Origin: Patescibacteria group bacterium
Lineage (GTDB): Bacteria > Patescibacteriota > Patescibacteriia > Patescibacteriales > WJLG01
Assembly (NCBI GenBank): GCA_028707065.1
Contig: JAQTUZ010000004.1
Location: forward strand, 6,656 to 70,655
DNA: 64,000 nucleotides
Direction: 5' to 3'
Positions 11,739-64,000 of this stretch are shown piece by piece; position 1 is the stretch's first letter; the number at the start of each line of letters is the position of its first letter. The position numbers and the translations under genes are program-made. The notes beneath the pieces are model-generated. The model worked only from the letters and a program-made list of their open reading frames with translations. It did not search any database and was not told the origin of the DNA.

Positions 11739-11803
11739 AAATAGTTTTTTCTGTTATGATAAAAAGAAGGAAAATTGATTTTGTCAAATTATTTTTTCAG
11801 CAC

Positions 11804-11834
11804 CGTTACGTGTTATGTGCTATGTGTTATGTAA
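11804..11834. repeat. inverted, degenerate copies of the heptad (CGTTACGTGTTATGTGCTATGTGTTATG)
   Basis: Reverse-complement-related to 11701-11738. The two could pair as a long interrupted hairpin. A third patch lies at 13304-13332. Confidence 0.8.
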
Positions 11835-11856
11835 TAAAGGTGATAAAATAAATAAC

Positions 11857-12447: not shown

Positions 12448-12504
12448 CCAATATTCAAAATAATAAATAAACAGTTTGATATCTGAATTTTCGCCAATAA
12501 ATGG

Positions 12505-12714
12505 TATTCAACCGCAGGTCAAGACCCGCCCCCCTATCTTTTCTGTTGGGTGTCCCCGCCACAAGTGGACGAGATCTTTATCGGCGCTCGCTCGGAAATA
12601 ATCCCCGCGAGGCGCGGGATCATTTCACTCACTCGCTTGATAAGCAAGGTTATCGGCGCTCGCTCGGAAATAATCCCCGCGAGGCGCGGGATCATTTCAC
12701 TCACTCGCTTGATA
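12505..12714 (-). repeat. copy 1 of a ~136-nt structured intergenic element (reverse orientation, with an internal duplication)
   Basis: The reverse complement aligns along its length with 44223-44358 and 62522-62657: TATCAAGCG…GAAAT(A/G)ATCCCGC-loop-GCGG(G/A)GATTATTTC…AGAAAAGAT…TTGA(A)TACC. Confidence 0.85.
12579..12714. repeat. perfect 64-nt direct repeat x2 (period 72 nt)
   Basis: TATCGGCGCTCGCTCGGAAATAATCCCCGCGAGGCGCGGGATCATTTCACTCACTCGCTTGATA occurs at 12579-12642 and 12651-12714, separated by AGCAAGGT. Confidence 0.95.
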
Positions 12715-12747
12715 ATAAAAAAAGACCGGTCGCGAGATCGGTCTTTT
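12715..12747. terminator. bidirectional intrinsic terminator-like hairpin
   Basis: A-run, AGACCG-N10-CGGTCT, then T-run. Confidence 0.6.
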
Positions 12748-17415: not shown

Positions 17416-17434
17416 AATGTTATTTTGAACTTCT

Positions 17435-17604
17435 TTTGTCATCCTGAGCCTCTGGCGAAGGATCTATTTTGAATTAGATTGGGATATAGTTGAAAAATTT
17501 TTTATGATAATCGTTGGTGATTAAGGCAATTGCTCAAAATTTATATCTCGTGTATCGGCGTATTGCGATAATAGATCCTTCGCGCGGCGCTCAGGATGAC
17601 AAAA
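17435..17604. repeat. MITE-like element: 35-bp terminal inverted repeats (TTTTGTCATCCTGAGC-N6-CGAAGGATCTATT) around ~100 bp
   Basis: The left arm (17435-17468) and right arm (17570-17604) are reverse complements except for the central 6 nt. The element lies between convergent rmlC and rmlD. Confidence 0.8.
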
Positions 17605-28375: not shown

Positions 28376-28440
28376 TATTATAGGCAAAATGGGTGCCTAT
28401 TTTTCAATTTTTAGGTTGATTTTACTAATAAATTTTGGGA

Positions 28441-28535
28441 TGTAATACTAATCCACGAATACATACTAATCTGACGAATATTTTTTCAACAAGCATTCGT
28501 TATATTAGTATGTATTCGTATTTATTAGTATTACA
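28441..28535. repeat. ~95-bp AT-rich imperfect palindrome, copy A (words AATAC/TACTAAT/CGAATAC)
   Basis: TGTAATACTAATCCACGAATACATACTAAT… pairs with …ATTAGTATGTATTCGTATTTATTAGTATTACA. About 90% identical to copy B. Confidence 0.9.
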
Positions 28536-28549
28536 TTTAAAATAATATT

Positions 28550-29200
28550 ATGATGATAAGTTATTTAGGACAATCGTGTTTCAAACTTCAGGACAAGCTC
28601 GGACCGGAAGGCGTGACCTTGGTCACCGATCCGTTTGATAAAGAGCTGGGTTTAAAAGTCCCGAATTTTGAAGCTGATATCGTAACCGTGAGCCATCAGC
28701 ATCACAATCATAATAATGCCGCGGCTTTGCGCGGCAATCCTTTTATCATCGACACGCCCGGAGAATATGATATTAAAAACGTCATGGTGCAGGGCATTAA
28801 AACCTGGCATGATGCCAAGGGCGGCGCCGAGCGCGGCGAGAATATTGTTTATCGGATTGAGATGGATGATTTGACCATCGTGCACTTGGGCGACCTCGGC
28901 CATATATTAACCGATGAACAATTGGAACAGTTGGACGACGTCGATATTTTGTTTATTCCGGTCGGCGGAAAAGTTACGTTGGATGCCAAAGCGGCCGTGG
29001 AAGTTATCGGCCAGCTTGAACCGCGGATCGTCATTCCGATGCATTATAAATTATCCGGCGCCAAGGCCGATCTTGATGCAGTGGAAAAATTCATCAAAGA
29101 ACTGGGAGTCCAGCCCCGCAAGGAAGAAAAATTGAAAGTCGCCAAGAAAGATCTGCCGGTTGAGGGGATGGAGCTTGTTGTTTTGGATGTGATAATGTAA
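28550..29200 (+). CDS. metal-dependent hydrolase, MBL fold (UPF0173-like)
   Basis: MISYLGQSCFKLQ…, HQHHNH-type metal motif (VTVSHQHHNHNN), …IVHLGDLGH…, 216 aa. Confidence 0.8.
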   Translation: MMISYLGQSCFKLQDKLGPEGVTLVTDPFDKELGLKVPNFEADIVTVSHQHHNHNNAAALRGNPFIIDTPGEYDIKNVMVQGIKTWHDAKGGAERGENIVYRIEMDDLTIVHLGDLGHILTDEQLEQLDDVDILFIPVGGKVTLDAKAAVEVIGQLEPRIVIPMHYKLSGAKADLDAVEKFIKELGVQPRKEEKLKVAKKDLPVEGMELVVLDVIM

Positions 29201-29288
29201 TACTAATCCACGAATACATACTAATTTCGAATATGTTTTTAGCAAGAATTCGTCATATTAGTATGTATTCGTATTCATTAGTATTACA
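29196..29288. repeat. ~93-bp AT-rich imperfect palindrome, copy B
   Basis: Starts within the stop codon of the MBL gene, in the same orientation as copy A. Confidence 0.9.
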
Positions 29289-29318
29289 TTTAAAAAGTAA
29301 ATAAAAGAACAATCATTT

Positions 29319-32443: not shown

Positions 32444-32517
32444 CCCCCCTCCTTTCGAAGGAGGACCCCCCTCCTTTTCAAGGAGGGGTTTGGGGGTGGT
32501 TCTGGGGGTGGTTCTGC
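32444..32517. repeat. GC-rich palindromic element, intergenic reference copy (two hairpins plus a GGGGGTGGTTCT x2 tail)
   Basis: CCCCCCTCCTTTCGAAGGAGG, then CCCCCCTCCTTTTCAAGGAGGGG, then TTTGGGGGTGGTTCTGGGGGTGGTTCTGC directly after the gyrA stop. Confidence 0.9.
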
Positions 32518-44168: not shown

Positions 44169-44221
44169 GTCCGTTTCAATCACTGTGTTGCAAAACATGG
44201 TGGTCGAAACGGACTTTTTTA
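44169..44221 (+). terminator. intrinsic terminator (long loop)
   Basis: GTCCGTTTC-N28-GAAACGGAC followed by TTTTTT. Confidence 0.6.
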
Positions 44222-44222
44222 T

Positions 44223-44358
44223 TATCAAGCGAAGCGAGTGAAATAATTCCGCTACGGCGGAGATTATTTCCGAGCGAGCGATGATAAATACCTCGTCCGC
44301 TGGTGGCGAGGATACCTTTTAGAAAAGATGGGGCGAGTGCCTGCCCCGCGATTGAATA
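44223..44358 (+). repeat. copy 2 of the ~136-nt structured intergenic element
   Basis: TATCAAGCGAAGCGAGTGAAATAATTCCGC-TAC-GGCGGAGATTATTTCCGAGCGAGCGATGATAAATACCTCGTCC…GGCGAGGATACCTTTTAGAAAAGATGGGGC…GCCCCGCGATTGAATA. Confidence 0.85.
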
Positions 44359-44496
44359 CCATTTATTATTACAATTAAGAAATTGATTTAATTGGCAAAA
44401 AACAAGGGGTAAGATATAATATATAACAAAGAACAGGGAACAAAGAGCAATGCGTTAATAATTATTTTATACTCTTTGATTTATGTTCTTTGATCA

Positions 44497-47400
44497 ATGA
44501 TTTTTATGGCTACTTCTAAATCAATCGAAGAATTGATCAAGTCTTCCCGGGGTGAACCAATGGCTGATGAGTCAGCCGAAGCTAAATTCGCCAAAAAAGA
44601 AGAGGAGATAAAGATCAAGGAAATGGAACGCCAGACCGGCGAGCGGGCCGCCGCCGCGGGGTTGCCTTACATTGATCTTTTCGGTTTTCCCATCAGTCCG
44701 GAGGCGATCGCGCTGATTCCCGAGGCTGACGCGGCCAGATTGAAAATCGTTTGTTTTTTTTATGACGGCAATAACGCCCGGATCGCGGTGATGGATCCGT
44801 CCTTGCCGGAAATCGGACCGATCGCCGAAGCGATCGCCCATGATTACCACGTCAAAGTGGCGTTTTATATGATCTCCTCGCACAGTTTTGACTATGCCTT
44901 GAAAATATACCAGACACTCCCCAAGATCATCCGCCAGACCAGAGGAGTTGATATTACCGAAGAAGAATTGGAAAAATTCAAAACTTATATCGAAGACTAT
45001 CGGAGCTTGGCGCAAAAGATCAACGAGGTCAACACCACCGATGTCATCACCCTGATTTTGGCTACCGCTTTAAAGATGGATTCAAGCGATCTGCACATCG
45101 AGGCGGAAGAAAAAGGCATCGCCGTCCGAGTCCGCGTCGACGGCGTTTTGTACGAGGCGGCAATGATCGAAAAAGAAAAATGGAAGCAGATCATTTCCCG
45201 CTTGAAACTTTTAGCCAAGGTCAAGATCAACATCACCGATAAGCCGCAGGACGGGCGCTTCACTATTTTTTTAACCAAGGAAAAAATCGAAGTCAGGGTT
45301 TCCTTTCTGCCCACCAATTACGGCGAGAGTGTGGTCGTTCGCTTATTGCGGCCGGGTTCGATAAGTTTGGGTTTTGAAAAATTGGGTTTGCGCCCCAAGG
45401 CCTGGGAAATTTTGGAACGGGAGATCAATAAGCCGAACGGCTTGGTCCTTGCCACCGGTCCGACCGGTTCGGGAAAAACCACCACGCTGTACGCGATTTT
45501 GCGGAAGATCAACAAGCCGGGAATGAAAATAATCACCTTGGAAGACCCGATCGAATATCAGCTGGAAGGGATCAACCAAAGCCAGATTGATCCTTCCAAA
45601 GGTTATACTTTCGCGAGCGGCCTAAGGTCGATCTTGCGCCAGGACCCGGACGTGATCATGGTCGGCGAGATCCGCGATCTGGAAACGGGGGAAACGGCGA
45701 TCCAGGCCGCGCTGACCGGCCATCTGGTTTTAAGCACTTTGCATACCAACGACGCCGCCGGCGTACTGCCCCGTTTGATCGATCTGGGCGTCAAGCCGTA
45801 TTTTATGACGCCGTCGATCAACTGCATTGTCGGCCAGCGTTTGGTCAGGCACCTTTGCCCCCAATGCCGGGTTGAGCATATTCTTAATGAAGAAGAAAAA
45901 CAAAAACTGGAAAAAATACTCGCGGTGGTTTCGCCTAAATCCGGAGAAGACGTGCCCACGGTCTTGCCGAAAATTTATCAGGCCGGCGCCGGCTGCAAAG
46001 CTTGCAATGGCATCGGCTATAAAGGCCGTCTCGGCATTTACGAACTTTTTACCATGACCGAGAGCATCAAAGAATTGGCGACGCAAAACGCTCCGGCGTT
46101 CAAATTGCTGGAGCAGGCGATCGAGGATGGCATGCTGACCATGCTGCAGGATGGCGTGTTTAAAGTTATGGACGGACTGACTTCCTTGGATGAAGTTTAT
46201 CGCGTCATCGGCAAAACCGATTATGTCGACGCCTTGTATGATATCGTCATCTCCAAAACTTTCGGCCATGGCATCAAAGTCACCGAAGCGGATATTGCCC
46301 GCAGCGAAGAGATCGCGGCCGACCCGGCCACGATGAATGCCAAAGCCGGCCGCATTCCTTCCAGTGAACTTCTTAATCTGGTTATGGCTTTGGCTCTCAA
46401 AGATGATGCCGGTGATGTCCATATTGAACCGACCGAAGGCGACGTCAAGATCAGATTCAGGATTGACGGCATTTTGCATGATATCTTGACTTTGTCCAAA
46501 GAGCATTATTTGCCGCTTTTGTCGCAAGTGAAAATTTCCGCCGGCTTTCCGACCAATGTCAAAAAGGCTACCTGGGACGGGCGCTTCGGCATATTCTTGA
46601 AAGACAAGAAGATCGATTGCCGCATTTCCATCATTTCCGGCGGCTATGGCGAAACGGTCGTGGTCCGCGTTTTGTCTTCCCAGGCGGAAAGCTTGGATCT
46701 GGAAAAATTAGGCATGCGGCCTTACGCTTTGGATCCGGTCAAGCGCTCGATGTCCAAAACCAAGGGTGTGATCATCAATACCGGTCCGACCGGTTCGGGA
46801 AAAACTACCACGCTTTACGCTATTTTAAACGCCTTGAATAAATCAGACGTGAAAATTATTACTGTCGAAGATCCGATCGAGTATCATCTTCCCGGCGTGA
46901 TGCAGACCCAGATCGACCCGGAACAAGGCTATACTTTCGCCGCGGCCATGCGTTCGCTCTTGCGCCAGAATCCCAACATTATGATGATCGGCGAAATCCG
47001 CGACGAGGAAACGGCCAAGATCGCGATTGAAGCATCGCTCACCGGCCACTTGGTCTTATCAACCATCCACGCCAACACGGCCGCCACCGCCATTTCCCGT
47101 TTTGCCGGCTTGGGCGTGGGCGCGCAAATGCTGGCTTCGGCGGTCGAATGCACGATCGGCCAGCGCCTGGTCCGTAAAAATTGCCAATTCTGCAAAGCGG
47201 AAGTGAAATTATCCGACGAGCAAATGAAAGAAGTAAAAACGATCCTTGATTCCATCAGTCCGCTGGCAAAAATAAAAATCCCCAAAATTTTGAAGTTTTA
47301 TCAAGGGAAGGGCTGCGCCAAATGCAATAACTTGGGCTACAAAGGGCGCTTGGGTATTTATGAAACGATTGAGATGATCCCGGAAATGCAGCGCAAGATC

Positions 47401-47538
47401 CAGGAAACCAACGTGACCGCTTTTGATATCGAGCAAGAGGCGATCAAATACGGCACGGTGACGATGATGCAAGACGGCATTTTGAAAGCTTTGGACGGGG
47501 AGACGAGCGTGGAGGAAGTGTTCCGGGTGGTAAAATAA
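44497..47538 (+). CDS. tandem-duplicated GspE/PilB-family secretion ATPase (two complete ATPase modules in one polypeptide)
   Basis: MshEN-like N-domain, then module 1 (Walker A GPTGSGKTTT at nt 45457, VIMVGEIRD, GHLVLSTLHTNDA, CPQC…CKAC). A ~45-aa linker leads to module 2 (Walker A at nt 46783, IMMIGEIRD, GHLVLSTIHANTA, CQFC…CAKC). Confidence 0.85.
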   Translation: MIFMATSKSIEELIKSSRGEPMADESAEAKFAKKEEEIKIKEMERQTGERAAAAGLPYIDLFGFPISPEAIALIPEADAARLKIVCFFYDGNNARIAVMDPSLPEIGPIAEAIAHDYHVKVAFYMISSHSFDYALKIYQTLPKIIRQTRGVDITEEELEKFKTYIEDYRSLAQKINEVNTTDVITLILATALKMDSSDLHIEAEEKGIAVRVRVDGVLYEAAMIEKEKWKQIISRLKLLAKVKINITDKPQDGRFTIFLTKEKIEVRVSFLPTNYGESVVVRLLRPGSISLGFEKLGLRPKAWEILEREINKPNGLVLATGPTGSGKTTTLYAILRKINKPGMKIITLEDPIEYQLEGINQSQIDPSKGYTFASGLRSILRQDPDVIMVGEIRDLETGETAIQAALTGHLVLSTLHTNDAAGVLPRLIDLGVKPYFMTPSINCIVGQRLVRHLCPQCRVEHILNEEEKQKLEKILAVVSPKSGEDVPTVLPKIYQAGAGCKACNGIGYKGRLGIYELFTMTESIKELATQNAPAFKLLEQAIEDGMLTMLQDGVFKVMDGLTSLDEVYRVIGKTDYVDALYDIVISKTFGHGIKVTEADIARSEEIAADPATMNAKAGRIPSSELLNLVMALALKDDAGDVHIEPTEGDVKIRFRIDGILHDILTLSKEHYLPLLSQVKISAGFPTNVKKATWDGRFGIFLKDKKIDCRISIISGGYGETVVVRVLSSQAESLDLEKLGMRPYALDPVKRSMSKTKGVIINTGPTGSGKTTTLYAILNALNKSDVKIITVEDPIEYHLPGVMQTQIDPEQGYTFAAAMRSLLRQNPNIMMIGEIRDEETAKIAIEASLTGHLVLSTIHANTAATAISRFAGLGVGAQMLASAVECTIGQRLVRKNCQFCKAEVKLSDEQMKEVKTILDSISPLAKIKIPKILKFYQGKGCAKCNNLGYKGRLGIYETIEMIPEMQRKIQETNVTAFDIEQEAIKYGTVTMMQDGILKALDGETSVEEVFRVVK

Positions 47539-47653: not shown

Positions 47654-48229
47654 ATGTTAAATAAGAAGTTCATCGAGAAGCTCAAGGGGGATTATCAAAA
47701 GTCGCAGTCGGAAAGACGGCAGATCATTTCTATTTCCAATGAAATCCTGCATGATTCGAAAAAGACGATTTTCGCCCTGCATCGCGGAGAAATAAAACAG
47801 GCCGAGGAAACTTTCAAAGCGATCGAGGAATCGCTGGCGCGGATGGAAAAGAATTTCGGCTTTAACCGCAACGAGGACGAGGGTTCTTATAAAGCGGCGG
47901 TTGAAGAATATGTCGAAGCCAAGATGTTTTATTATTATCTGTCCGGCCAAAAGATCGACAAAATTTCCGAAGTCAATCTGGATTATGACAGCTATATCGG
48001 CGGCATCTGCGATTTCACCGGCGAGATGGTCCGCTACGCCACTAACCAGGCGGCGGCGGGAAATTTCGAGAAAGTCGCGGAAGTGAAAGAAGCGATCAAT
48101 CTGGTGATCGGCGAACTGATCGATTTTGATCTGGGCGGCTATCTGCGGACCAAGTATGACCAGTGCCGGTCTAATTTAAGGAAGATCGAAGAAATGGCTT
48201 ATGAGGTGAAATTAAAAACTGGCAAATAA
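47654..48229 (+). CDS. translin-family protein
   Basis: …DYDSYIGGICDFTGEMVRYATNQAAAGNFE…LRTKYDQCRSNLRKIEEMAYEV matches the conserved translin C-terminal pattern (Y..G..D.tGE..R……LR.KyD…….E…Y). Confidence 0.65.
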   Translation: MLNKKFIEKLKGDYQKSQSERRQIISISNEILHDSKKTIFALHRGEIKQAEETFKAIEESLARMEKNFGFNRNEDEGSYKAAVEEYVEAKMFYYYLSGQKIDKISEVNLDYDSYIGGICDFTGEMVRYATNQAAAGNFEKVAEVKEAINLVIGELIDFDLGGYLRTKYDQCRSNLRKIEEMAYEVKLKTGK

Positions 48230-51723: not shown

Positions 51724-54700
51724 ATGGAACAAGAATTAAATCCAAACCAAGGCCAAGACCTGGCTGGGCGTAATAAAGAGGATGAGGCAGCGTTATTAAA
51801 GGCAGAGGAAAAAATTAAAAACCTCGCTTTTAAAGACGAACCCGCTACGCCGGATTTCCAGGAAAATTTGCAAAATCGGATTTTGGCGGCGCGCCATCGT
51901 CATTTTTCTATGTCCGAATTTTTAAACAAGCTCGCCAAAGGATTGATTTTTATGTTTGACACCAAGGCTTTTGTCCCGGCCGTGGCCGTTTTTTTGATCA
52001 TTGCCGTCGGCTTGAGCCTGACCATGCCCTGGCTGCCGCGGCAAGCGGGCGTTAATAATCCCTGGGGGAAGATCTCCCAATTGGTTATCAACCCGGCCTA
52101 CGCGCAGGATAATTTTTCCGCCGAGGCGACCATTTCCGACAGCTTGGGCGTTGGCGCCGATACGGCTTTTATCATTAAAAGCAAAGAGGCGATTGACGAG
52201 CAAACTCTGCGGGCGAACATAACTTTACAACCGACGACCGAATTTTCCTTAACCAAGATCGATGATCATACTTATCAAGTAATTCCGGCGCAAGCTTTGG
52301 CGGCCAAGAAAGTTTATAGCTTGAAGATCGCCAGCGCTTATGTCGATCAAAGCGGCGCCACCGTCGAGCGCGATTATTCCTGGGCCTTCCAGGTCAAAGA
52401 TATTTTTAAGGTTTTGAATTCGATCCCGGGCAATCAGGCCAATGGCGTGCCGTTGGATGCCGGAATTGAAGTGACTTTTTCCAACGAAAACTTCAGCAAT
52501 TACGAACAAGCGTTCAAGATCGAGCCGGCCATTGCCGGGCGTTTTGAGATTCACAAGCGCACTTTGGTTTTTGTGCCCAAAGCTTTGGAGGCGGGGATGA
52601 TCTATACCGTGACCATCAATAAAGATTTGCTGAAAGTTACGGGGAGCGAAGCCAAGCTCGCGGAAAATTATGTCATTCAATTTGAAACCGATCCGGCCGG
52701 AAAAAAACGCGGCGAGTATTCCGAATTCAATTTCCAAAATAATTTTAACGAGATCTATACCGAACGCGCGCCGGCGCTGGCTGTCAATCTATACAACATC
52801 AAACAGGAAACTTTTGCCGTCGAAGTTTACGCATTTTCCGGCGCGGACGGATTTATTGCCGCCCTGGAAAAGTCGCAAAAAATTCCCTATTGGGCGCAGT
52901 ACAATCGCGCTGTCTACAATACCGACGTTTCCGCCTTGACTAAAGTTTCCTCGTTTTCCATTCCTTTGTCGCCTTTTGGCTACAACAAATACTTGGTGTT
53001 TCCCGACAAGATCGCCAAGGGTTTTTATGTCGTTCAGGTCAATATCAACGGCGTTTATCTTCAGACATTTATGGAGGTTTCCGATTTGACCAATTATACG
53101 ACCGTGACTGATACCAATACTTTGGTTTGGCTCAACAATATCAAAACCAAAGGACCGGCGGCCGGGGCGAAGGTAAAAATTATCGGCACGGACAAGCAGA
53201 CGGTTACCGGAAGCGACGGAACGGCCGTGATGCCGACCAGCTGGCTGTCTGCCGGCACCACCAGCGACCGCACTTACTTGCTGATCGACGCGGGAGAAAA
53301 AACGATCGTGCCGATCAATTTCAATTATCAAAACACCGCGCCAACGGGCGTCATGCCTTTGAGCGCCGCTTCTAAATTCTGGTATTATTTTTATACCGAT
53401 CGGATGACTTACCAGCCGGGCGACACGGTCAGCTATTGGGGCTTTGTCAAACCACGGGAAGGAGTGAAAAGCTCTTCGACGGTCACGATCAAATTATTCG
53501 GCTGGCAAAGTTATTACGATTATTACAATGACCCGGTGCCGCTCTTGCAAACCGCGGCGCAGCTTGATCCTAACTTTACTTTTACCGGCAAGATCGATCT
53601 GGGGCGTTTATCCGCCGGGTATTATTATTTGGAATATTTTATCGGCGACCAGATGATCGGCAGCCGCGGTTTGAACATCGAGAACTATGTCAAACCGGCT
53701 TATAAAGTGGAGGCGAACGCCGACCAGCACGCGGTTTTTGCGGGGCAGACCCAGTCGATCGCGGTCAAGGCCAGCTTTTTCGAAGGCACGCCGGTTCCTA
53801 ATCTGGCTTTAACTGACCCGAACGATAACGGGCAATTAAAAACCAACGCTTTGGGCGAAGCGATCAAAACTTTTAAGGTCGATCCGGTTTCCGGCGACTA
53901 CGGCAGCAACTGCAATTATTTTTATCCGGTCGCGTCCGAGGAAGCCGATATTTCCGCCAGCGCTTGCTACACTGTTTTCAATTATAGCGTCGTCCCCAAG
54001 GGGGAACTGGTGAAAACGGACGGAGCCGATCAGGCGAAATTGCAATTAAACGTGAAAAAGGTGGATATCGCCAAAGCCAACGTGGTCGGGGCGACCGAAG
54101 ATCAATTCTTGCACGAAGCCGCTCCGGGCATGCCCGTAACCGTTTCGGTCACGGAAATTTCTTATCAGGCCGTTTCCACCGGACAGTATTATGATTTCTT
54201 CAATAAGATCGTGCGTAATACCTATCGCTACAATGAGATCAGAAATAATATCGCCTCGGCCAAGGGCAAAACCGATTCGGCCGGCCAATACCAGTATTCA
54301 TTTCCGATCAAGCCGAAAAACAGTTATGAAGTCAATGTCACGATCAAGGATGTTAACGGCCAGGATATCAATGAGCGATATTATATCTATTACAGCCAGT
54401 ATAATTTTGACGATCAAAGCGATTATTATAATTTGGGATTCAAAGATCAGAAGAAAACGGATTTTTCCTTGGGCGAACAGGTGCAGATCCAATATAAGAA
54501 TAAGGATCAGCTCTTGCCTGTTGCCCCCGGCCATTATCTTTTCTATCGCCTGTTCAAAGGATTGGTGGATTATCAGATCGGCGGCAGCGCGGAATATAAT
54601 TTCAATTTTACCGACCGCTTCTTGCCCGGCGTGTACGTGATGGGAGTTTATTTTGACGGTGAAACTTACCATCGGCCGGGAAGTTACGGTTATTGGGAGT

Positions 54701-57297
54701 CATATTCCCCCGGGCTGTATGTGCCTTTCAAGCAAACCGACCGGGAATTAAAAGTCGAGGTGACGCCGGATAAAGACAAATATCAGCCGGGAGGCGAGGT
54801 GAAGTTGGCTGTCAAAGTTACCGACAAATCCGGCAAGCCCGTGGCGGCGAGCGTCAATCTTAATCTGGTTGACGAGTCTTATTACGCGATCTATCCGGAA
54901 AACGTCGATGCCCTGGGAGGATTATACGGCAATCGGGTCGAGGACGGCGAGTTAGTGACTTATATTTCCAATCCGGCGCCGGCGCTTGGCGCCGAAGTCG
55001 CGGAAAGGGGCGGCTGTTTTCTCGCGGGCACCAAAATAACCATGGCCGACCGGTCGCTTAAAAATATCGAAGATGTTAAAATCGGCGACGAGGTGCTTAC
55101 CTTTACCAATGAAACGGCGCGGAGTTTGGTGGCGGGAAAAGTAACCAAGACCTATGTCCACGAAGTCGGCGAGTATTTGATCATTAATGATAAATTAAAA
55201 ATCACTCCGATCCACCGCGTTTTCTTGAACGGCCAATGGCGGATGATCGGCGAAGCCAAGGTCGGCGACTGGCTTTTGGACGAGCAAGGCGAAAAAGTTA
55301 AGATTGCCAAGATCGAGGACCGCCGCGGTCTGTTCAAAGTTTATAATCTGACGATCGAGCCTTATCATACTTTTTTTGCCGAAGGTTTTTATGTCCATAA
55401 TGATAAAGGCGGCGGCGTGCGTTCGCTGTTCGTGGATACGGCCGTGTTTATGAACGTCAACACCGGCGCTGATGGCGCGGCAATCGCCGCCTTCAAGCTG
55501 CCGGATAATATCACTTCCTGGCGCGTGACCGCGCAAGCTTTAAGCGGCGATCTTTACGCCGGCGACAAGGTCATCAATCTCAAATCGTCTCTGCCGGCCT
55601 TCGTCAACACCACTTTCGCCAAAGAATATTTAACGGTCGATAAGCCGATCGTAAAAGTGCGGGCTTTCGGCGACGCGCTGCGCGATAATGATCCGGTGCA
55701 ATTCAAAATGGACGCGCCGACTTTGAATTTTTCGAGCACGACCGTCGGCCAGGCCTTTGTTGCTTCCTATTTTAAGCTCCCGCCATTGGCGATCGGCGAG
55801 CACTCGATCACCACGGCGATCAAAGCCGGCGGCAACCAGGACGCGGTTTTGGAAAAAGTGAAGGTGCTCGATACTCGTTTTAAAGAAACCAAAACCCAGT
55901 TCTATGAATTATCGCCGGGCCTTAAAGCGGCCGGGGCGCCCGATGGCCAGACTAATTTGATTTTCAGCGACAAAAACCAAGGCCGATTCTACGGCCAGCT
56001 TTCCTATTGTTTCTTTTGTTCGGGCGGCGATCGGGTCGATCAAAAATTGGCCCGGGTCGTATCGGCCGATCTCTTGAAGAAATATTTCGGCGAAGAACCC
56101 TTTAACCCGGAAACTTTTAACGGGGCGATGTATCAAACCGATGACGGCGGCGTCGCTTTGCTGCCCTATGCTTCTTCGGATTTTGAATTGTCAGCCAAGG
56201 TCGCTTTTGTCGCCGGAGATTATTTCGATAAGACCCGGCTGACCAATTATTTTTACAAGATTTTGACGGCCGATGATTCGACCCGCGAACAAGTCGGGGT
56301 TTCTCTTTTCGCCTTGAGCGGTTTGGGCGAACCGATCTTGTCGCCGGCGGAAAATTTCGCCGCGCTGCCCGATCTCACCGCTAAGGAAAAATTGTATATC
56401 GGCATTGCCCTGAATCATTTGGGCGACGCGGAAACGGCGCGCGCTATCTATTCGGCGGTAATAAAAGACAAAGGAGAAAAATTAGATCCTTATCTGCGGG
56501 TCAAAGTTTCGGATTCCAACGATGAGATTTTGGCGGCGACCTCGCTGGCGGCGATCTTGGCGGGCGGGCTCTTAATTCCCGATCATGAACAATTATGGAA
56601 TTACGCGGAAAGTAATTATACCCGGAATATCTCGATTGATCTGGAAAAGCTGGCCTATGTTTCCGAAACTTTGCCCAAACTTACTCCGGGCGAAGTATCC
56701 TTTACCATCAATCTGCCCGGAAGAAAAATCGACAAAACTCTCTCGCGCGGCGAAAGTTTCCGCCTGAAAATCGAACCGGCTGATCTGGGAGTGATTTCAT
56801 TCTCCAATATCAAAGGCCAGGTCGGCTTGACCAGTTCTTACCAGGCGCGCGAAGCCAATATCGCGCCTCGTGATGATTCTTATGTTTCCTTGCGGAGAGA
56901 ATACTATGTCAACGGCGTTAAGACCAATACCTTCAAAGAAAGCGACTTGGTGGAGATCAGGATGTACCCGTCCTTCAAACCCGGCGCCTTAAATTATGGT
57001 TATCAAATTACCGATCTGCTCCCTTCCGGGTTGAGCGTGATGACCAATCTTTATTCGCGCGGCATGAATTACTCCTGCAGCAATTATTATCCTTACGAAG
57101 TTAACGGGCAGACGGTTAAGTTCTCGATCTGGAAGGACTGGAATAAAGGTTCATATTGCCATACGGATTATTTCAGTTATTTCGCCCGCGTCGTTAATCC
57201 GGGCGAATACCGGGCCGAATCGGCCGTGATCCAGTCGTTCGAGGCAAGCACCGTCAAGAATTATTCCGGCGCGAATACGGTGTTGATCGAAAAATAA
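51724..57297 (+). CDS. membrane-anchored alpha-2-macroglobulin-like protein (1857 aa) with an inserted Hint domain
   Basis: Starts 4 nt after the sigma-factor stop. N-terminal ~80 aa, then a TM helix (AFVPAVAVFLIIAVGLSLTM). MG-type domains (FYTDRMTYQPGDTVSYWGFV; VEVTPDKDKYQPGGEVKLAVKVTDKSGKPVAASVNLNLVDESYYAI). A2M block (VRSLFVDTAVFMNV…FKLPDNITSWRVTAQA). I saw no CxEQ thioester motif. Confidence 0.8.
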   Translation: MEQELNPNQGQDLAGRNKEDEAALLKAEEKIKNLAFKDEPATPDFQENLQNRILAARHRHFSMSEFLNKLAKGLIFMFDTKAFVPAVAVFLIIAVGLSLTMPWLPRQAGVNNPWGKISQLVINPAYAQDNFSAEATISDSLGVGADTAFIIKSKEAIDEQTLRANITLQPTTEFSLTKIDDHTYQVIPAQALAAKKVYSLKIASAYVDQSGATVERDYSWAFQVKDIFKVLNSIPGNQANGVPLDAGIEVTFSNENFSNYEQAFKIEPAIAGRFEIHKRTLVFVPKALEAGMIYTVTINKDLLKVTGSEAKLAENYVIQFETDPAGKKRGEYSEFNFQNNFNEIYTERAPALAVNLYNIKQETFAVEVYAFSGADGFIAALEKSQKIPYWAQYNRAVYNTDVSALTKVSSFSIPLSPFGYNKYLVFPDKIAKGFYVVQVNINGVYLQTFMEVSDLTNYTTVTDTNTLVWLNNIKTKGPAAGAKVKIIGTDKQTVTGSDGTAVMPTSWLSAGTTSDRTYLLIDAGEKTIVPINFNYQNTAPTGVMPLSAASKFWYYFYTDRMTYQPGDTVSYWGFVKPREGVKSSSTVTIKLFGWQSYYDYYNDPVPLLQTAAQLDPNFTFTGKIDLGRLSAGYYYLEYFIGDQMIGSRGLNIENYVKPAYKVEANADQHAVFAGQTQSIAVKASFFEGTPVPNLALTDPNDNGQLKTNALGEAIKTFKVDPVSGDYGSNCNYFYPVASEEADISASACYTVFNYSVVPKGELVKTDGADQAKLQLNVKKVDIAKANVVGATEDQFLHEAAPGMPVTVSVTEISYQAVSTGQYYDFFNKIVRNTYRYNEIRNNIASAKGKTDSAGQYQYSFPIKPKNSYEVNVTIKDVNGQDINERYYIYYSQYNFDDQSDYYNLGFKDQKKTDFSLGEQVQIQYKNKDQLLPVAPGHYLFYRLFKGLVDYQIGGSAEYNFNFTDRFLPGVYVMGVYFDGETYHRPGSYGYWESYSPGLYVPFKQTDRELKVEVTPDKDKYQPGGEVKLAVKVTDKSGKPVAASVNLNLVDESYYAIYPENVDALGGLYGNRVEDGELVTYISNPAPALGAEVAERGGCFLAGTKITMADRSLKNIEDVKIGDEVLTFTNETARSLVAGKVTKTYVHEVGEYLIINDKLKITPIHRVFLNGQWRMIGEAKVGDWLLDEQGEKVKIAKIEDRRGLFKVYNLTIEPYHTFFAEGFYVHNDKGGGVRSLFVDTAVFMNVNTGADGAAIAAFKLPDNITSWRVTAQALSGDLYAGDKVINLKSSLPAFVNTTFAKEYLTVDKPIVKVRAFGDALRDNDPVQFKMDAPTLNFSSTTVGQAFVASYFKLPPLAIGEHSITTAIKAGGNQDAVLEKVKVLDTRFKETKTQFYELSPGLKAAGAPDGQTNLIFSDKNQGRFYGQLSYCFFCSGGDRVDQKLARVVSADLLKKYFGEEPFNPETFNGAMYQTDDGGVALLPYASSDFELSAKVAFVAGDYFDKTRLTNYFYKILTADDSTREQVGVSLFALSGLGEPILSPAENFAALPDLTAKEKLYIGIALNHLGDAETARAIYSAVIKDKGEKLDPYLRVKVSDSNDEILAATSLAAILAGGLLIPDHEQLWNYAESNYTRNISIDLEKLAYVSETLPKLTPGEVSFTINLPGRKIDKTLSRGESFRLKIEPADLGVISFSNIKGQVGLTSSYQAREANIAPRDDSYVSLRREYYVNGVKTNTFKESDLVEIRMYPSFKPGALNYGYQITDLLPSGLSVMTNLYSRGMNYSCSNYYPYEVNGQTVKFSIWKDWNKGSYCHTDYFSYFARVVNPGEYRAESAVIQSFEASTVKNYSGANTVLIEK
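55015..55401 (+). other. Hint / bacterial-intein-like (BIL) domain, 129 aa, no endonuclease
   Basis: CFLAGTKI (block A), ITPIH (block B TxxH), VYNLTIEPYHTFFAEG (block F), FYVHN (block G). The next residue is Asp. Confidence 0.8.
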
Positions 57298-57307
57298 ATC
57301 TTATCTT

Positions 57308-59266
57308 ATGGCGGGAAGAAGGATCATCATTTTAATTTTTGTTTTAGGCGCATCGGCGGTCATCTTGGCCGCCGGTGCGTTTGTATTGGAGAAAAAGAAT
57401 TTTTCCGCGGAAAAGGCGATCAGCCCGGATCGGCCGGCTAATGAAGCGGTGAATGAATCGGCGCATATTTTTCCTTATGATCGTAATCTTTTCAATTCAG
57501 CCATCAGTAAAAATTATCTTGAGCGAATGGCGACGAGCGGGCCGGTCATTGCCGGCCTGGTGCCGCATCATGAGTTGGCCGGGGATCTGGCCGCGGAATT
57601 TTTTTCCTCGCTGGCGCAAAAACAAAAAGTTAATAATTTCATTGTCATCGGACCCTTGCACTCGGATCAAGCGGTCGGCCCCGCGGTAAGCGGGCGGTTT
57701 ATCTGGGATGCCGGGTTTGGCCAGGTGGAAAATAATTATGAAATACTGGACGATCTGGTCGCGGCTCATTTGGTGGTTTATGACGAGAATGCGGTGCGGA
57801 GCGAGCACGCTCTTTATAATATGGCGCCGTTCATCGCCCATTATTTTCCGGAGGCGAAGATCGCGCCGATCGCCTTGACTTCGCGTAATTCTCCGGAACA
57901 ATGTTTCGCTTTGGCTCAGGCTCTGCAGAAATATCTGGCCCAAGGGGATACGGTGCTGGTCGCCTCGATCGATTTTTCCCATTATCTTCCGGCTGATCAA
58001 ACTCCGGCCAAAAATTTGCGAATGATCGAGTTGATAAAAAATAAGGATTACCAGACGATTGCCGGCCTGGCCAATGATTATTTGGATTCGCCCCCTTCGC
58101 TTATCACCTTGCTTAAGGCCGCTGATCTGTCGGATGCCGGCGTTAATATTTTAGCTTCGACCAATTCCGGAGAAATTACCGGGACGCCGGTTCTTTCTTC
58201 AACCAGCTATATCAGCGCCTTTTTTGCCGTCCCCCTCCTTTCAAATGAGTCTGTCCCCGCGAAGGCGGGGAAGGGGTCTGGGCCCGTCTCGGTTTTACCT
58301 ACAGCGTCCAGTAGTCCCTTGAAGCTGCTTTTTTTCGGCGACATTATGCTTGATCGCCAGGTCGGCGAAAAGATCAAGGCTTCGGGAAGCTTGGACTGGA
58401 TCTTCAAGGGCTTGAATTCGACCGGAATTTTTCAAGGCAATGATATTGTTTCCGCCAATCTGGAAGGCGCGGCCACTGATAATGGCGCGCATTATCCGCC
58501 GGCCTTGGTTTTTGATTTTGCTTTCGCGCCCAAGCTGGTCGGAGAGCTCGCGAAATATAATTTTAATTATTTTAATCTGGCCAATAATCATTTAGCCGAT
58601 CAGGGCAAAAATGGTATAATAGAGACAGAGAAAAATCTTACTGATCTGGGTTTTGTTTTTGCCGGCTGCCAGGATCGCCAAGTCGGCGACTGCACGGCCA
58701 AAATTGTGGAGAAAAGCGGCCGCCAGATCGGGTTGATCGGCGCGAGCATGGTTTATGGCGCGCTTGATGAAAACCGCCTGATCGCCGAAGTAAAAAAGCT
58801 GGCCAGTTCCACCGATTTAGTGGCGGTGCAAATACATTGGGGAACGGAATACAAGCACGAGGCGGCGGCCAACCAAACCGTTTTGGCGCGCAAATTGATC
58901 GATGCCGGCGCTGATATCATCATCGGCCATCATCCGCATGTGGTCGGCGGGGTGGAACTATATAAAAATAAGCCGATTTTTTATTCGCTGGGGAATTTCG
59001 TTTTTGATCAGTATTTTTCTCTTGATACGCAGGAAGAGTTGGGAGTGAGGATAGCCGTAACCACCCCCAAACCCCTCCTTGGAAAGGAGGGGGGCGAGGG
59101 GAAAAATTTCCAGATCGATCTTTTGCCGATCAAATCGGAAGCCGGACGCTTGCGCCTGATGAATAACGCGGAGAAAGATAAATTTTTGACCAAGCTGGCG
59201 GGCTGGTCGATCGGCGATAAAAATTTTTTGTCGGAAGTCGGAGCGGGTAAAATAGTTATTGAATAA
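57308..59266 (+). CDS. fusion protein: Memo-like (AmmeMemoRadiSam B-type) N-domain plus CapA/PGA_cap metallophosphatase C-domain
   Basis: N-terminal TM helix. Memo-like blocks are GLVPHHELAG and ASIDFSHYLP. CapA-like blocks are LLFFGDIMLDR, ANLEGA, NLANNHLADQG, GHHPHVVGG and YSLGNFVFDQ. Confidence 0.7.
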   Translation: MAGRRIIILIFVLGASAVILAAGAFVLEKKNFSAEKAISPDRPANEAVNESAHIFPYDRNLFNSAISKNYLERMATSGPVIAGLVPHHELAGDLAAEFFSSLAQKQKVNNFIVIGPLHSDQAVGPAVSGRFIWDAGFGQVENNYEILDDLVAAHLVVYDENAVRSEHALYNMAPFIAHYFPEAKIAPIALTSRNSPEQCFALAQALQKYLAQGDTVLVASIDFSHYLPADQTPAKNLRMIELIKNKDYQTIAGLANDYLDSPPSLITLLKAADLSDAGVNILASTNSGEITGTPVLSSTSYISAFFAVPLLSNESVPAKAGKGSGPVSVLPTASSSPLKLLFFGDIMLDRQVGEKIKASGSLDWIFKGLNSTGIFQGNDIVSANLEGAATDNGAHYPPALVFDFAFAPKLVGELAKYNFNYFNLANNHLADQGKNGIIETEKNLTDLGFVFAGCQDRQVGDCTAKIVEKSGRQIGLIGASMVYGALDENRLIAEVKKLASSTDLVAVQIHWGTEYKHEAAANQTVLARKLIDAGADIIIGHHPHVVGGVELYKNKPIFYSLGNFVFDQYFSLDTQEELGVRIAVTTPKPLLGKEGGEGKNFQIDLLPIKSEAGRLRLMNNAEKDKFLTKLAGWSIGDKNFLSEVGAGKIVIE

Positions 59267-61005: not shown

Positions 61006-61571
61006 AAATCGCGGTAATTTCCGATCTTCACGATAATCTGGTCAACTTGAGAAAATGTCTCTCTTGGTGCGGGCAAAATAATATCGAGAAGCTGATCTGC
61101 TGCGGCGACGTGACCAACGCGGAGACGCTGGGAATTCTTTCCCGGGAATTTAAGGGAGAAATTTTTTTAGTCCGCGGCAATTTGGAGATCTACCAAGAAG
61201 AAGAAATCGAGCCTTATAAAAATTATACTTATGGCGGGCGGCTTGCCGGCCATAGCCTTGGCGACGGCCGGACGGCGATTTGGGAGATTGATGGAAAAAA
61301 AGTCGGCGTCTGCCATGAACCTTTTTTTATCAATCAAGTTTTAGCAAAAGCAAAATCCCCCCTCCTTTCTAAGGAGGGGTCTGGGGGTGGTTCTGCAAAG
61401 GCGGCGGACATCGTCTTTTACGGCCATACTCATAAGCCCTGGATCGAAGAAAAAGACCATGTTCAAATAGTGAATCCGGGAACTTTGGGCGGAGTCTTCA
61501 CTCAGCCGACTTTTGCTGCTTGGGATACCGTGAGTGGTAAACTGGAATTAAAATTGCTGAATAATCTCTAA
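61002..61571 (+). CDS. YfcE/MJ0936-type metallophosphoesterase
   Basis: MKIAVISDLHDN, CCGDV, VRGNLE and FYGHTHKP motifs. Carries a 14-aa insertion encoded by the GC-rich palindromic element. Confidence 0.8.
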   Translation: MKIAVISDLHDNLVNLRKCLSWCGQNNIEKLICCGDVTNAETLGILSREFKGEIFLVRGNLEIYQEEEIEPYKNYTYGGRLAGHSLGDGRTAIWEIDGKKVGVCHEPFFINQVLAKAKSPLLSKEGSGGGSAKAADIVFYGHTHKPWIEEKDHVQIVNPGTLGGVFTQPTFAAWDTVSGKLELKLLNNL

Positions 61572-62396: not shown

Positions 62397-62425
62397 TTGA
62401 CAGCTTTTTTGATTTGTAATATAAC
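62397..62425 (+). promoter_or_regulatory. sigma-70-like promoter (TTGACA-N17-TATAAC)
   Basis: Read directly, 15 nt after the suhB-like stop. Confidence 0.5.
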
Positions 62426-62429
62426 ACAA

Positions 62430-62522
62430 TTAAGTGGGTGAATTCCCTGTTTAATGGTGTTAGTCGAAGCAGTATGGGCTTTGCTCGAACGAAGCAATCG
62501 TTTTGGCAAAGCCCTTTTTTTT
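62430..62522 (+). ncRNA. candidate ~90-nt small RNA (promoter-to-terminator unit without an ORF)
   Basis: Bounded by the promoter at 62397-62425 and the terminator GGGCTTTGC-N21-GCAAAGCCC-TTTTTTTT (62476-62522). The loop contains CGAAGCAATCG, as does the terminator at 62854-62903. Confidence 0.35.
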
Positions 62523-62657
62523 ATCAAGCGAAGCGAGCGAAATAATCCCGCGACAGCGGAGATTATTTCCGAGCGAGCGATGATAAATACTTCGTCCGGC
62601 GGCACGCGAGGATACCTTTCAGAAAAGATGGGTGCGGGGATTGCCTTGCGCTTGATA
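62522..62657 (+). repeat. copy 3 of the ~136-nt structured intergenic element
   Basis: Terminal inverted repeat TATCAAGCG…CGCTTGATA. Internal hairpins are GAAATAATCCCGC-GACA-GCGGAGATTATTTC, CTTCGTCC…GCGAGG and GCGGGG-ATTG-CCTTGC. Confidence 0.85.
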
Positions 62658-62752
62658 CCATTCGTTTGTTATAATTATCTTGGTTCATTCAGCCCCTTTT
62701 CTGGCATGAAAAGGGATATCCGCATTTCAACCCCTTTAAAGAGAGGTGAATT

Positions 62753-62830
62753 ATGCTTCACTTTACCATCGGCCAAAACATTGGCCCTCCGGCGATCATA
62801 GTCGCCAAAAAAACAGCGCGCATCAAATAA
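62753..62830 (+). CDS. possible 25-aa micropeptide (MLHFTIGQNIGPPAIIVAKKTARIK)
   Basis: Strong SD AGAGAGGTG 4-5 nt upstream of the ATG, followed by its own terminator. Too short to support further. Confidence 0.25.
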   Translation: MLHFTIGQNIGPPAIIVAKKTARIK

Positions 62831-63265: not shown

Positions 63266-63294
63266 TTGACAAATTTTATAGAATGTGATAATGT
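63266..63294 (+). promoter_or_regulatory. consensus sigma-70 promoter (TTGACA-N17-TGaTAATGT)
   Basis: Read directly, 12 nt after the preceding terminator. Confidence 0.65.
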
Positions 63295-63334
63295 TAAAAT
63301 ACGAACGTTGAAAAGATTATAGCCGGTTTTAGAG

Positions 63335-63363
63335 CCACTGGGAAGGCGTCCCAATGGTTTTTT
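63335..63363 (+). terminator. early hairpin plus T-run (attenuator-like) ~40 nt after the predicted transcription start
   Basis: CCACTGGGA-AGGCG-TCCCAATGG (one C/A mismatch) followed by TTTTTT. Confidence 0.5.
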
Positions 63364-63885
63364 GTTCCACCTTAACTATCCCAACCCAGCGCGGGTGCCG
63401 GATAATAGAAAGAGAAAGCATACATTCGCCGCCTGTTTTCATTGTTTCGGTAAACACATTTTCTCAACACGGGCCACGGACCTACTGTGGACACAGGAAG
63501 CAGTGGGGCCAGTTCTGTACCGGCAGGAACTAAAATACTTGTCCGGACATTGTTGCCTGCACTCCCCATCGGGACCCCGCACGGGCGGTAAACCGAGGCT
63601 CCAGGCAACGCGATGCGCAATCGACAATCGCCGCCACCAACGACATCATTTCCTGCGGCGACGCGCAAAACCTCGTTCCTTTAATGCGCGCTACGTTCTG
63701 TCGATATGAAGAACGAGCAATTCCAACCACGAAATCCAATCCCGGGCTAACGTGACATTGGCCCAAAGGAAAGGGACATCATGCGAAGAAAATTCGCCTA
63801 TGAAAGTCGAGCAGCGCCGCAGGCACTGACATCCTGAATCTTCAGGGGCAGCAACCTGCAAGGCTGACTGTCTACGATAGCATAC

Positions 63886-63922
63886 GGGAGCGAGATTGAT
63901 CTAATCAACTCGCTCCTTTTTT
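63886..63922 (+). terminator. intrinsic terminator
   Basis: GGAGCGAG(A)TTGAT-CTA-ATCAACTCGCTCC followed by TTTTTT. Confidence 0.85.
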
Positions 63923-64000
63923 AATATCCAATATCAAATAATAAATATCAAAAAAATATTATAATATTTAAATATTTTTTAATATATCGGTTATTTGATA

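Follow-up and report, generated by a model that had tools for sequence, protein, structure and literature searches.

Structured repeats in the window

The locus raises the question of whether a structured repeat found three times in a 64,000-nucleotide stretch of patescibacterial DNA (the whole of which is called the window here) represents a small structured RNA or a mobile element. An earlier note, which had set out these two options, placed copies at three loci, and all three were present at those positions and aligned end to end (copies A, B and C; Table 1). The copies share (T)TATCAAGCG as their start and CG(C/A/G)TTGA(A)TACC towards their end, with the true ends of the elements lying slightly outside the boundaries drawn at that time and with conservation in the window copies continuing beyond them to ACCATTTATT. 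Hairpins 1, 2 and 3 and the conserved AGAAAAGAT stretch were likewise all present. Each window element measures ~150 nt, except for a duplication in copy C, where a 72-nt unit stands in tandem (12578-12643 and 12650-12715, minus strand, 100% identical); this duplication explains the 210-nt span previously given for that copy. The copies share the 19-mer GATTATTTCCGAGCGAGCG, which occurs four times in the window against 0.06 occurrences expected by chance, the fourth arising because copy C, with its hairpin 1 tandemly duplicated, carries two. A covariance model run on the window detected exactly four hairpins, namely those of copies A, B and C and the duplicate in C, and nothing else above noise. 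Folding of the three copies as RNA in the given strand was more stable than that of shuffled sequence (z = -3.6, -3.5 and -1.6), and the opposite strand folded more weakly than the given one (z = -0.85, -2.6 and -0.3).

Table 1 Positions of the three repeat copies, their parts and the neighbouring terminators and promoters in the window.
Feature	Position	Strand	Remarks
Copy A, complete long-type element	62520..62666	+	Covariance model score 67.6 bits; begins with the TTTAT that ends the terminator T-run and extends to ...CTTGATACCATTCGTT
Copy A, module 1	62521..62586	+	Outer stem TTATCA/TGATAA; two GCGAGCG arms (G-C pairs and tandem G·A); inner stem GAAATAATCCCGC/GCGGAGATTATTTC
Copy A, hairpin 2 (CTTCGTCCGGCGGCACGCGAGG)	62590..62611	+	Pair 85-102: UA 4, CG 3, UG 1
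Copy A, small helix ACC.../...GGT	62614..62633	+	Conserved AGAAAAGAT in the loop
Copy A, hairpin 3 GCGGGG-ATTG-CCTTGC	62634..62649	+	In the family consensus the stem carries a CTTG loop
Copy A, 3' end	62652..62666	+	TTGATACC motif and degenerate terminal repeat ATTCGTT (ATTTATT in copies B and C)
Copy B, complete long-type element	44218..44367	+	Covariance model score 64.2 bits; TTTATT at 44218-44223 and 44362-44367
Copy C, long-type element with module 1 tandemly doubled	12496..12719	-	Covariance model scores 68.9 and 57.9 bits; TTTATT at 12714-12719 and 12496-12501
Copy C, pair of identical 66-nt module-1 units	12578..12715	-	Start-to-start period 72 nt
Intrinsic terminator GGGCTTTGC...GCAAAGCCC with T8	62474..62522	+	Copy A is inserted at its T-tract; lies at the end of a small transcription unit that is conserved; read by eye
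Hairpin GTCCGTTTC...GAAACGGAC with T6, directly 5' of copy B	44169..44220	+	Terminator-like with a long loop; read by eye
Bidirectional terminator GACCGATCTCGCGACCGGTC with T7	12717..12747	-	T-tract ends in TTTATT, where copy C starts; homologous terminator in L146-L150
-35 hexamer TTGGCA	62503..62508	+	Promoter intact in relatives (17-nt spacer to TATAAT)
Orphaned -10 hexamer TATAAT	62670..62675	+	Same promoter as TTGGCA at 62503..62508
Promoter of the fused double PilB ATPase gene, TTGGCA-17-TATAAT	44392..44420	+	Conserved in relatives; intact downstream of copy B

Relatives in genomes and metagenomes

Scanning one genome per species for the exact 19-mer returned two full copies in a Candidatus Falkowbacteria MAG and, in a Berkelbacteria MAG, one copy that has the first hairpin in common and a different sequence after it. 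A looser pattern applied to metagenome contigs (TCAAGCG, 25-55 nt, TTCCGAGCGAGCG) matched at least 120 loci, and the genuine relatives amounted to ~85 distinct ones among the matches listed, the remainder being chance matches in GC-rich coding sequence. With the covariance model R1, at least 103 copies were found in 88 sources, with up to three per locus (loci are designated by L numbers), and 12 of the 103 do not fit the retrieval pattern. The hosts of the element are Patescibacteria, as indicated by the Falkowbacteria and Berkelbacteria MAGs and by the names of the sources, and a GC-rich subfamily (L053) has a Lactamase_B_3-gyrA gene order that matches that of the window. By synteny and source names, the window itself falls in a Patescibacteria MAG near Falkowbacteria. 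The elements come in two size classes, of ~85-90 nt and ~140-175 nt, the window copies being of the long form, and the module 1 described below is doubled in copy C and in L013, L027 and L035. A Logan contig from the same genome (L001) breaks off within copy A, as expected for an assembly running into a repeat.

The earlier note had proposed a comparison with Rfam, and at gathering thresholds the window gave 0 matches to Rfam 15. At E-values up to 10 the region 62450-62750 gave three chance matches, none of them on the body of the element, and searches at permissive E-values beside copies A and C returned nothing relevant. In the literature on CPR structured RNAs, on REP and MITE sequences in Patescibacteria or Parcubacteria, and on tandem-GA repeats, no description of the family was found. 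A BLAST search of the element against 72,556 plasmids returned nothing but one chance AT-rich match. A phage origin was also considered and rejected, the 12 matches of the retrieval pattern in viral contigs all being chance occurrences in GC-rich coding sequence. The family appears to be undescribed and widespread in CPR metagenomes, and in kind it joins the known structured interspersed repeats.

Structure and covariation of the two modules

The core common to family members is a ~66-nt hairpin, module 1, laid out as TTATTATC-AAGCGAGCGAGn-variable stem-loop-CGAGCGAGCGCAG-GATAA. Its outer stem (consensus ATTATC/GATAAT) and an inner stem of free sequence flank two purine arms, AAGCGAGCGAG and CGAGCGAGCG, both of which carry GCGAGCGAG. 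The arms read in the same direction and have no Watson-Crick pairing in register, and a shift of one position yields the succession G-C, C-G, G·A, A·G, G-C, C-G, G·A, A·G, G-C, in which G-C pairs, also predicted by ViennaRNA, alternate with tandem G·A mismatches. The arrangement 5'-CGAG-3'/3'-GAGC-5' is a classic stable context for sheared tandem G·A pairs.

Compensatory stem changes, which had been claimed from the three window copies, are thin among those copies alone and overwhelming once the wider family is added. Over 82 sequences, 91.9% of cells were paired in the structure proposed for module 1; column shuffles gave 79.9%, and slid registers no more than 52%. The proposed structure had a covariation score of 0.289 (0.101 in shuffles), which 0 of 500 shuffles equalled. 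Pair 8-78 of the outer stem occurred as AU 51, UA 22, GC 8 and CG 1 times and was never unpaired, and entire subfamilies carry the outer-stem variants ATTTTC/GAAAAT, ATATTC/GAATAT, ATTGTC/GACAAC or ATCGTC/GACGAT. The inner stem, variable in sequence, covaries strongly as the outer stem does. Invariance of the purine arms in the retrieved set is partly a matter of ascertainment, because the search pattern fixed them; the arms are also retained in the 12 pattern-independent copies, in which G13-C72 is replaced by A-T in L008 (with its duplicate locus L011) and in L022, and C14-G71 by T-A in L105. These double changes within the G·A rod support the predicted continuous helix.

The closing stem of the element, proposed earlier as a terminal inverted repeat TATCAAGCG/CGNTTGATA, was not borne out, being perfect in two of nine subfamily members (copy A and L003) and otherwise showing uncompensated mismatches. 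The 5' end pairs with TGATAA/GATAA just 3' of hairpin 1 rather than with the 3' terminus, and this stem covaries across the family. Module 2 is a short hairpin, AAAGGGT-TTAAT-ACCCTTT, with a covarying stem. In the long form, two further hairpins, most of which have a CTTG loop with a closing G-C pair, sit in the loop of module 2 together with a small helix that has AGAAAAGA in its own loop, and this extra segment is flanked by the direct repeat (T)AATACC.

Three further readings of these sequences were rejected. The U·G excess at pair 19-67 (27 in one count; 30 versus 1 A·C in another), taken as a call of the strand, proved to be an artefact of the 3' arm fixed by the pattern, and on unconstrained pairs only, the excess of G-U over A-C was weak (37 versus 24). 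For a k-turn no membership is claimed, since in the consensus the G·A pairs are not beside a 3-nt bulge. Coding of a peptide was dismissed as well, the ATG in GAAATGAAA opening different frames among the copies and the stems varying in length.

Ends and target site

The element runs from 5'-TTATT to TTTATT-3'. In logos anchored at the 5' end, conservation sets in abruptly at TTATT(A/T)TC, the sequence upstream being merely T-rich, and those anchored at the 3' end show AAUACC(C)TTTATT followed by background composition; this 3' motif was present in 43 of 92 copies and in 6 of 83 control windows. TTTAT(T) is found at both ends of the element family-wide and once per empty site. Copies B and C have a perfect TTTATT at both ends, with right junctions that are not clean indels, and copy A is a clean indel at a T-run site, with degenerate repeats. 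One subfamily has TATAT at either end. A member of it, in L031, lies within a duplicated 5' half of a tRNA-Pro gene, and the single TATAT of the intact tRNA-Pro corresponds, in the interrupted copy, to a TATAT on either side of the element.

Presence and absence at orthologous sites

Copies A, B and C are all missing from the orthologous sites of close relatives, and the covariance model found no element in ~128 kb of these relatives' DNA. The empty sites each carry a single TTTATT, where the T-tract of a terminator ends. For site A, four relatives (L142-L145; inositol monophosphatase 82-86% identical) lack the element and have exact flanks, in which the terminator hairpin, the T-tract and a single TTTAT(T) are followed by TTTGyTAyrATTAT; copy A sits exactly between the two, and the junction reads ...TTTTAT(T)... 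in every relative. In L144, a 17-pair terminator overlaps a promoter, TTGGCA-17-TATAAT (1551-1579; 11/12 matches). Given this intact promoter and the clean insertion of copy A, the latter has moved the -35 hexamer ~160 nt away from the -10 hexamer. Copy A is a clean insertion splitting a conserved promoter, and a copy that parts -35 and -10 in this manner can, judging from the promoter sequence, change local expression. The idea that a promoter might point outward from the 3' end of copy A was rejected, TTGATA being just 12 nt from TATAAT, which is too short.

For site B, three relatives (L139-L141; fused PilB ATPase 88-92% identical) are without copy B and also without the 177-aa gene that precedes it, their empty site carrying TTTATT between the terminator and the promoter. 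For site C, five loci (L146-L150, of which L148-L150 are near-identical; HD protein 78-82% identical) are without copy C. Read on the element strand with a slash at the junction, the relatives have GGCCTTTTTTTATT/GATTATTT and the window has GGTCTTTTTTTATT/ATCAAGCG; the left junction is exact, and 46 additional nucleotides lie at the right one.

Elsewhere in the family, a copy in an operon spacer of L033 corresponds in L036 to just a 30-nt spacer with a ribosome-binding site, and L031 and L112 have copies around the same tRNA in differing places and orientations. Two other candidates were set aside: the comparison of L040 with L090 as an empty site, in which homology stops at the junction instead of resuming as in a clean indel, and L078, a fold-back assembly artefact. 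The sole orthologous pair with both sites filled (L028/L082) has elements identical at 86 of 88 positions, within flanking coding DNA that is ~87% identical; the two differences compare with ~11 expected at that divergence, with a chance of ~0.001 by a rough hand estimate. Such similarity is not what neutral decay would predict for a selfish copy, and this single case suggests constraint at the level of the host, gene conversion between copies or a hot spot that was used more than once.

Terminators, orientation and neighbouring genes

A simple terminator scan misses the long-loop terminators 5' of copies A and B, for which direct reading and the homologous hairpin of L144 were used. With a strict rule applied automatically, 11 of 95 copies were scored as abutting a terminator tail on the same strand, as compared with 2.9% in a matched control of random windows given the element's own first six bases, and inspection by eye places ~20 copies at terminator tails. 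The element occupies TTTATT sequences that lie either next to stop codons or where the T-tract of a terminator tails off. Where flanking open reading frames were called on both sides, their orientations relative to the element were (+,+) in 15 cases, (-,-) in 15, convergent in 14 and divergent in 4, and thus there is no sense bias, with convergent spacers in excess and divergent ones in deficit. In L022, three copies lie inside the S10/tuf ribosomal operon in antisense orientation. The reading frames of several antisense neighbours stop no more than ~20 nt from module 1, which places their stop codons in module 2, whose reverse complement (AATAAA) contains TAA. Orientation was unrelated to the sign of the local GC skew (21 versus 25), from which the direction of replication was inferred, and no GC-skew switch occurs across the window.

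No protein family recurs in more than 5 of the ~80 loci, among the matches listed, and without a recurrent downstream gene a riboswitch or leader was rejected. The genes bracketed by two copies are ordinary ones (EF-Tu, tuf; glutamate racemase, murI; a glycosyltransferase), and the notion of dedicated genes between paired copies was dropped, the bracketed genes being merely housekeeping. Pfam detected no transposase, integrase or reverse transcriptase in 30 window proteins and four further window genes (L001), nor did any of these recur near copies at ~80 loci, among the matches listed. No Y1_Tnp (RAYT) gene is present among the window proteins. L139 has an RVT_1 gene and no elements at the locus. 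As to its gene content in general, the window is rich in type IV pilus genes.

Features of an independent small-RNA gene were not found: the element starts in the T-tract of the upstream terminator, the sequence upstream is unconserved, and the element is absent from the syntenic sites of relatives. Because it abuts the upstream terminator, it has no room for a promoter of its own.

Interpretation

Between the two options of the earlier note, a MITE-like mobile element is supported by the polymorphism at all three sites and a small-RNA gene is not, because of that polymorphism, the lack of an Rfam match, the missing room for a promoter and the random orientation. The label of a simple MITE does not fit either, since clear terminal inverted repeats and a known partner transposase are lacking, the element is modular and one orthologous copy is slower to evolve than the DNA around it. 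We therefore regard copies A, B and C, with a probability of roughly two in three (0.68), as non-coding, non-autonomous mobile structured repeats of Patescibacteria, ~85-175 nt in size. Insertion would take place at TTTAT(T) and probably duplicate it. An enzyme encoded elsewhere may recognise the folded purine-rich strand, as single-stranded DNA or as RNA, through the G·A rod, and the survival of copies at terminator tails could reflect both the choice of target and selection against harmful insertions in very compact genomes. The folded intermediate would look RNA-like by its CTTG loops, its G·A pairs and its folding asymmetry. Against a dependence on transcription stand the random orientation of the copies, their want of a promoter and their position behind terminators. 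Since CPR genomes have ~1,000 genes and relatives differ in carriage of the element, a partner gene, if there is one, might come to light through a simple correlation of presence and absence.

The same RNA-like features could mean that the element works for its host, as a structured RNA module co-transcribed with its neighbours (a 3'-end stabiliser, a processing or termination signal, or a decoy for a protein) and perhaps spread by mobility. Strong covariation, tandem G·A pairs together with CTTG loops closed by G-C, the better folding of the sense strand than of the antisense strand, and a second hairpin that is followed by UUUAUU(U) in the manner of a weak terminator would all be expected of such a module, the L028/L082 copy is more conserved than the flanking coding DNA, and transcription is known for bcr1, BOX and ERIC, repeats of an analogous kind (PMC3184786). 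The placement of the copies speaks against it: half of those between co-directional genes are antisense (15 versus 15), ribosomal-protein operons included, and many sense copies lie just past an intrinsic terminator and so would be transcribed by read-through only. As the copies also lack a promoter of their own and any association with a gene, and as all three window copies are missing in close relatives, we consider this explanation unlikely.

Orientation independent of transcription and of GC skew, the intergenic location at gene 3' ends and an invariant motif flanking a palindrome are also compatible with a host site acting at the DNA level, that is, a cruciform or hairpin for a nucleoid protein, a topoisomerase or a replication protein (compare BIME/REP sequences binding gyrase and IHF), or a DNA-uptake signal in bacteria that scavenge DNA and are rich in pili, for which the wealth of type IV pilus genes in the window could be quoted. 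For uptake sequences, a density of tens per Mb (three copies in the 64-kb window) is low, a housekeeping role is awkward to reconcile with the absence of any copy from ~128 kb of sister genomes, and the conserved G·A mismatches and the G-C to A-T double changes in the rod require folding of a single strand and not recognition of a duplex, all of which makes a site of this kind very improbable. Mobility might instead proceed through RNA, with a SINE-like retroelement copied by a group II intron, a retron or another reverse transcriptase. RNA-type structural features and insertion exactly at terminator tails, as in class C group II introns, would agree with this, and reverse transcriptases do exist in related genomes (RVT_1 in L139). 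Yet the L139 locus has no elements, neither the window proteins scanned nor the recurring neighbours of the copies include a reverse transcriptase, and no intron or ribozyme domain was detected; with no 3' A-tail and no reliable sense transcription of the copies, we hold the RNA route to be quite improbable.

Comparison with known repeats

The behaviour of the CPR element seems closest, among those described, to that of bcr1. The bcr1 or group A bcr repeats of the Bacillus cereus group are ~155 bp, non-coding, interspersed and bounded by five-base TTTAT direct repeats; they form two stem-loops in which compensatory changes preserve the pairing, their distribution differs among close strains, and no transposase is known for them (PMC6199540, PMC6542083, PMC3184786). 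Some plasmids carry bcr1 (PMC6542083), and bcr1, BOX and ERIC repeats are transcribed (PMC3184786). The CPR element resembles bcr1 in its TTATT.../...TTTATT ends, in empty sites with one TTTAT(T), in covarying stem-loops and in a patchy distribution. The hosts differ (Bacillota versus Patescibacteria), the likeness is drawn from behaviour and not from sequence, and the targeting of terminator tails found for the CPR element has no counterpart in the descriptions of bcr1 that we found; nor did the literature yield a description of a G·A rod in bcr1. Because its hosts are Patescibacteria and not the Bacillus cereus group, the CPR element is an analogue of bcr1 and not a member. It is conceivable, if rather doubtful, that the G·A rod is a docking site for a CPR-wide enzyme or RNA-binding protein and that the element makes up, with bcr1, a distinct TTTAT-specific, folded-strand mobilisation system directed to terminator tails, or alternatively that the element has been co-opted by the host, at which the slow evolution of the L028/L082 copy hints.

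BOX and SPRITE repeats of Streptococcus pneumoniae are comparable in being modular, with a variable number of modules, and in having stable predicted structures. [quoted passage not shown] The CPR element differs from both in having no sequence similarity and in its ends and target, and BOX is presumed to owe its mobility to an IS transposase. Like REP/BIME/REPIN-RAYT and the IS200/IS605 hairpin elements, it forms extragenic hairpins at the 3' ends of genes, is flanked by a short T-rich target and would be recognised as a folded single strand and not by terminal inverted repeats. Its consensus is nevertheless without the GTAG/CGTC head, it is far longer than the 20-40 nt of REP, and it showed no strand bias against the local GC skew (21 versus 25) that served as a proxy for the direction of replication; the same pentamer at both of its ends suggests duplication of the target, which IS200/IS605 does not duplicate. 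The classical MITEs (Correia/NEMIS, RUP, ERIC) are alike in being small, non-coding and multi-copy, with presence/absence polymorphism and promoter effects such as that of copy A, whereas the CPR element lacks conserved terminal inverted repeats, its conserved part is a structured hairpin in the interior, and no full-length IS related to it was found. Class C bacterial group II introns are said, after work by Robart, Seo and Zimmerly in 2007, to insert right after the T-stretch of intrinsic terminators; the CPR element differs from them in having no ribozyme domains or reverse transcriptase and in being ~10-20 times smaller.

Significance

The genomes of CPR/Patescibacteria are tiny and usually described as poor in mobile DNA. 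The family indicates that a structured repeat keeps entering and leaving their short intergenic spacers and, as copy A exemplifies, can rewire promoters. In practical terms, metagenome assemblies break at the copies, and the element can pass for a candidate small RNA or riboswitch. Its G·A-rich hairpin is a well-defined candidate ligand for biochemistry, and its bcr1-like behaviour would provide a second, very gene-poor system in which to seek the mechanism of mobilisation.

Surroundings of copy A

Copy A of the mobile hairpin element is inserted at the terminator of a short transcription unit directly 3' of the inositol monophosphatase gene, in which a promoter-like TTGACA...TAATAT is followed by about 95 nt and a terminator hairpin. 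We consider this unit a candidate small RNA. The alignment of the copy A site with relatives (A7) showed that the unit is kept in five genomes, among which the terminator hairpin displays compensatory changes. The region downstream of copy A contains the conserved hairpin CCCCTTTTCTGGCATGAAAAGGG, which precedes a ribosome-binding site, GAGAGGTG, with a short reading frame behind it; according to the same alignment this frame is conserved in relative L142 and partly in L144. The promoter of this frame is the one that copy A splits between its -35 and -10 boxes.

Further downstream lies a GC-rich, non-coding block that is missing in L142, where the A7 alignment joins both flanks directly. An Rfam search of the block with E up to 1 returned no match, and its RNA fold z was -2.6 on the + strand and -1.25 on the - strand. 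The block could represent a large non-coding RNA or else a mobile, intron-like insert devoid of an ORF.

Other repeats and unusual genes in the window

A second repeat family in the window is a 36-nt palindrome, CCCCCCTCCTTTyyAAGGAGGGGTyTGGGGGTGGTT, the copy of which at 61357 sits within a metallophosphoesterase gene, in frame, and encodes the peptide SPLLSKEGSGGGSAKAA, resembling in this the in-frame Rickettsia palindromic elements. The orthologues in L142 and L143 are free of the palindrome, and that of relative L141 carries another insert at the same position.

Tandem heptamer-type CGTAACA(CG) repeats, together with an inverted copy of them, occupy the divergent spacer between a pilB-like ATPase gene and an HD-domain gene, possibly forming an operator array. 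The inverted repeat TTTTGTCATCCTGAGCCTCTGGCGAAGGATCTATT, 35 nt long and with 101 nt between its arms, resembles the widespread GTCATTCCGAGCGAAGCGAGGAATC-type repeats of loci L089 and L110, which were chance matches of the metagenome scan. Direct repeats of 68 and 46 nt, 85-91% identical and with internal palindromes, stand on either side of a Lactamase_B_3 gene.

Elsewhere in the window, a Translin-family gene comes after the gene for a fused double PilB/GspE ATPase, and relatives keep this pair; Translin is unusual in bacteria. Residues 1097-1226 of an alpha-2-macroglobulin-like protein form a HINT/intein-like domain (PT-HINT, Vint), which is also present in relative L139.

Coordinates of features in the window and in element-bearing loci
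Feature	Locus	Position	Remarks
CGTAACA(CG) repeats	window	11699-11835	D11, I21
35-nt inverted repeat	window	17434-17604	I14
68-nt and 46-nt direct repeats	window	28440-29295	D6, D20, I7
Lactamase_B_3 gene	window	28550-29200	
36-nt palindrome	window	32466-32501	
Fused double PilB/GspE ATPase	window	44497-47538	1013 aa, two T2SSE domains
Translin-family gene	window	47654-48229	
Alpha-2-macroglobulin-like protein	window	51724-57297	1857 aa
36-nt palindrome	window	59059-59094	reverse complement
36-nt palindrome	window	61357-61392	
Candidate small RNA	window	62397-62522	
Hairpin, ribosome-binding site, short frame	window	62700-62830	
Short reading frame	window	ATG at 62754	product MLHFTIGQNIGPPAIIVAKKTARIK
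TTGACA 5' of GC-rich block	window	~63265	
GC-rich block	window	63281-63916	~640 nt
Strong terminator at end of GC-rich block	window	63885-63925	
Element copies	L022	747-813, 4382-4448, 5724-5791	antisense, ribosomal S10/tuf operon spacers
Element tandem arrays and nested variants	L013	1188-1440 (-)	
	L027	276-485	
	L035	35-200	

Element copies in other loci

In three other loci the element forms tandem arrays and occurs in nested variants, and in L013 the G·A arm (purine arm of the core hairpin) of one unit carries an inserted CCCCGAAGGGGTCCTTTTGGGAC. The three antisense copies of L022 lie in the rplV/rpsS and rpsJ/tuf spacers and upstream of tuf; antisense insertion of the element inside essential operons is therefore tolerated.
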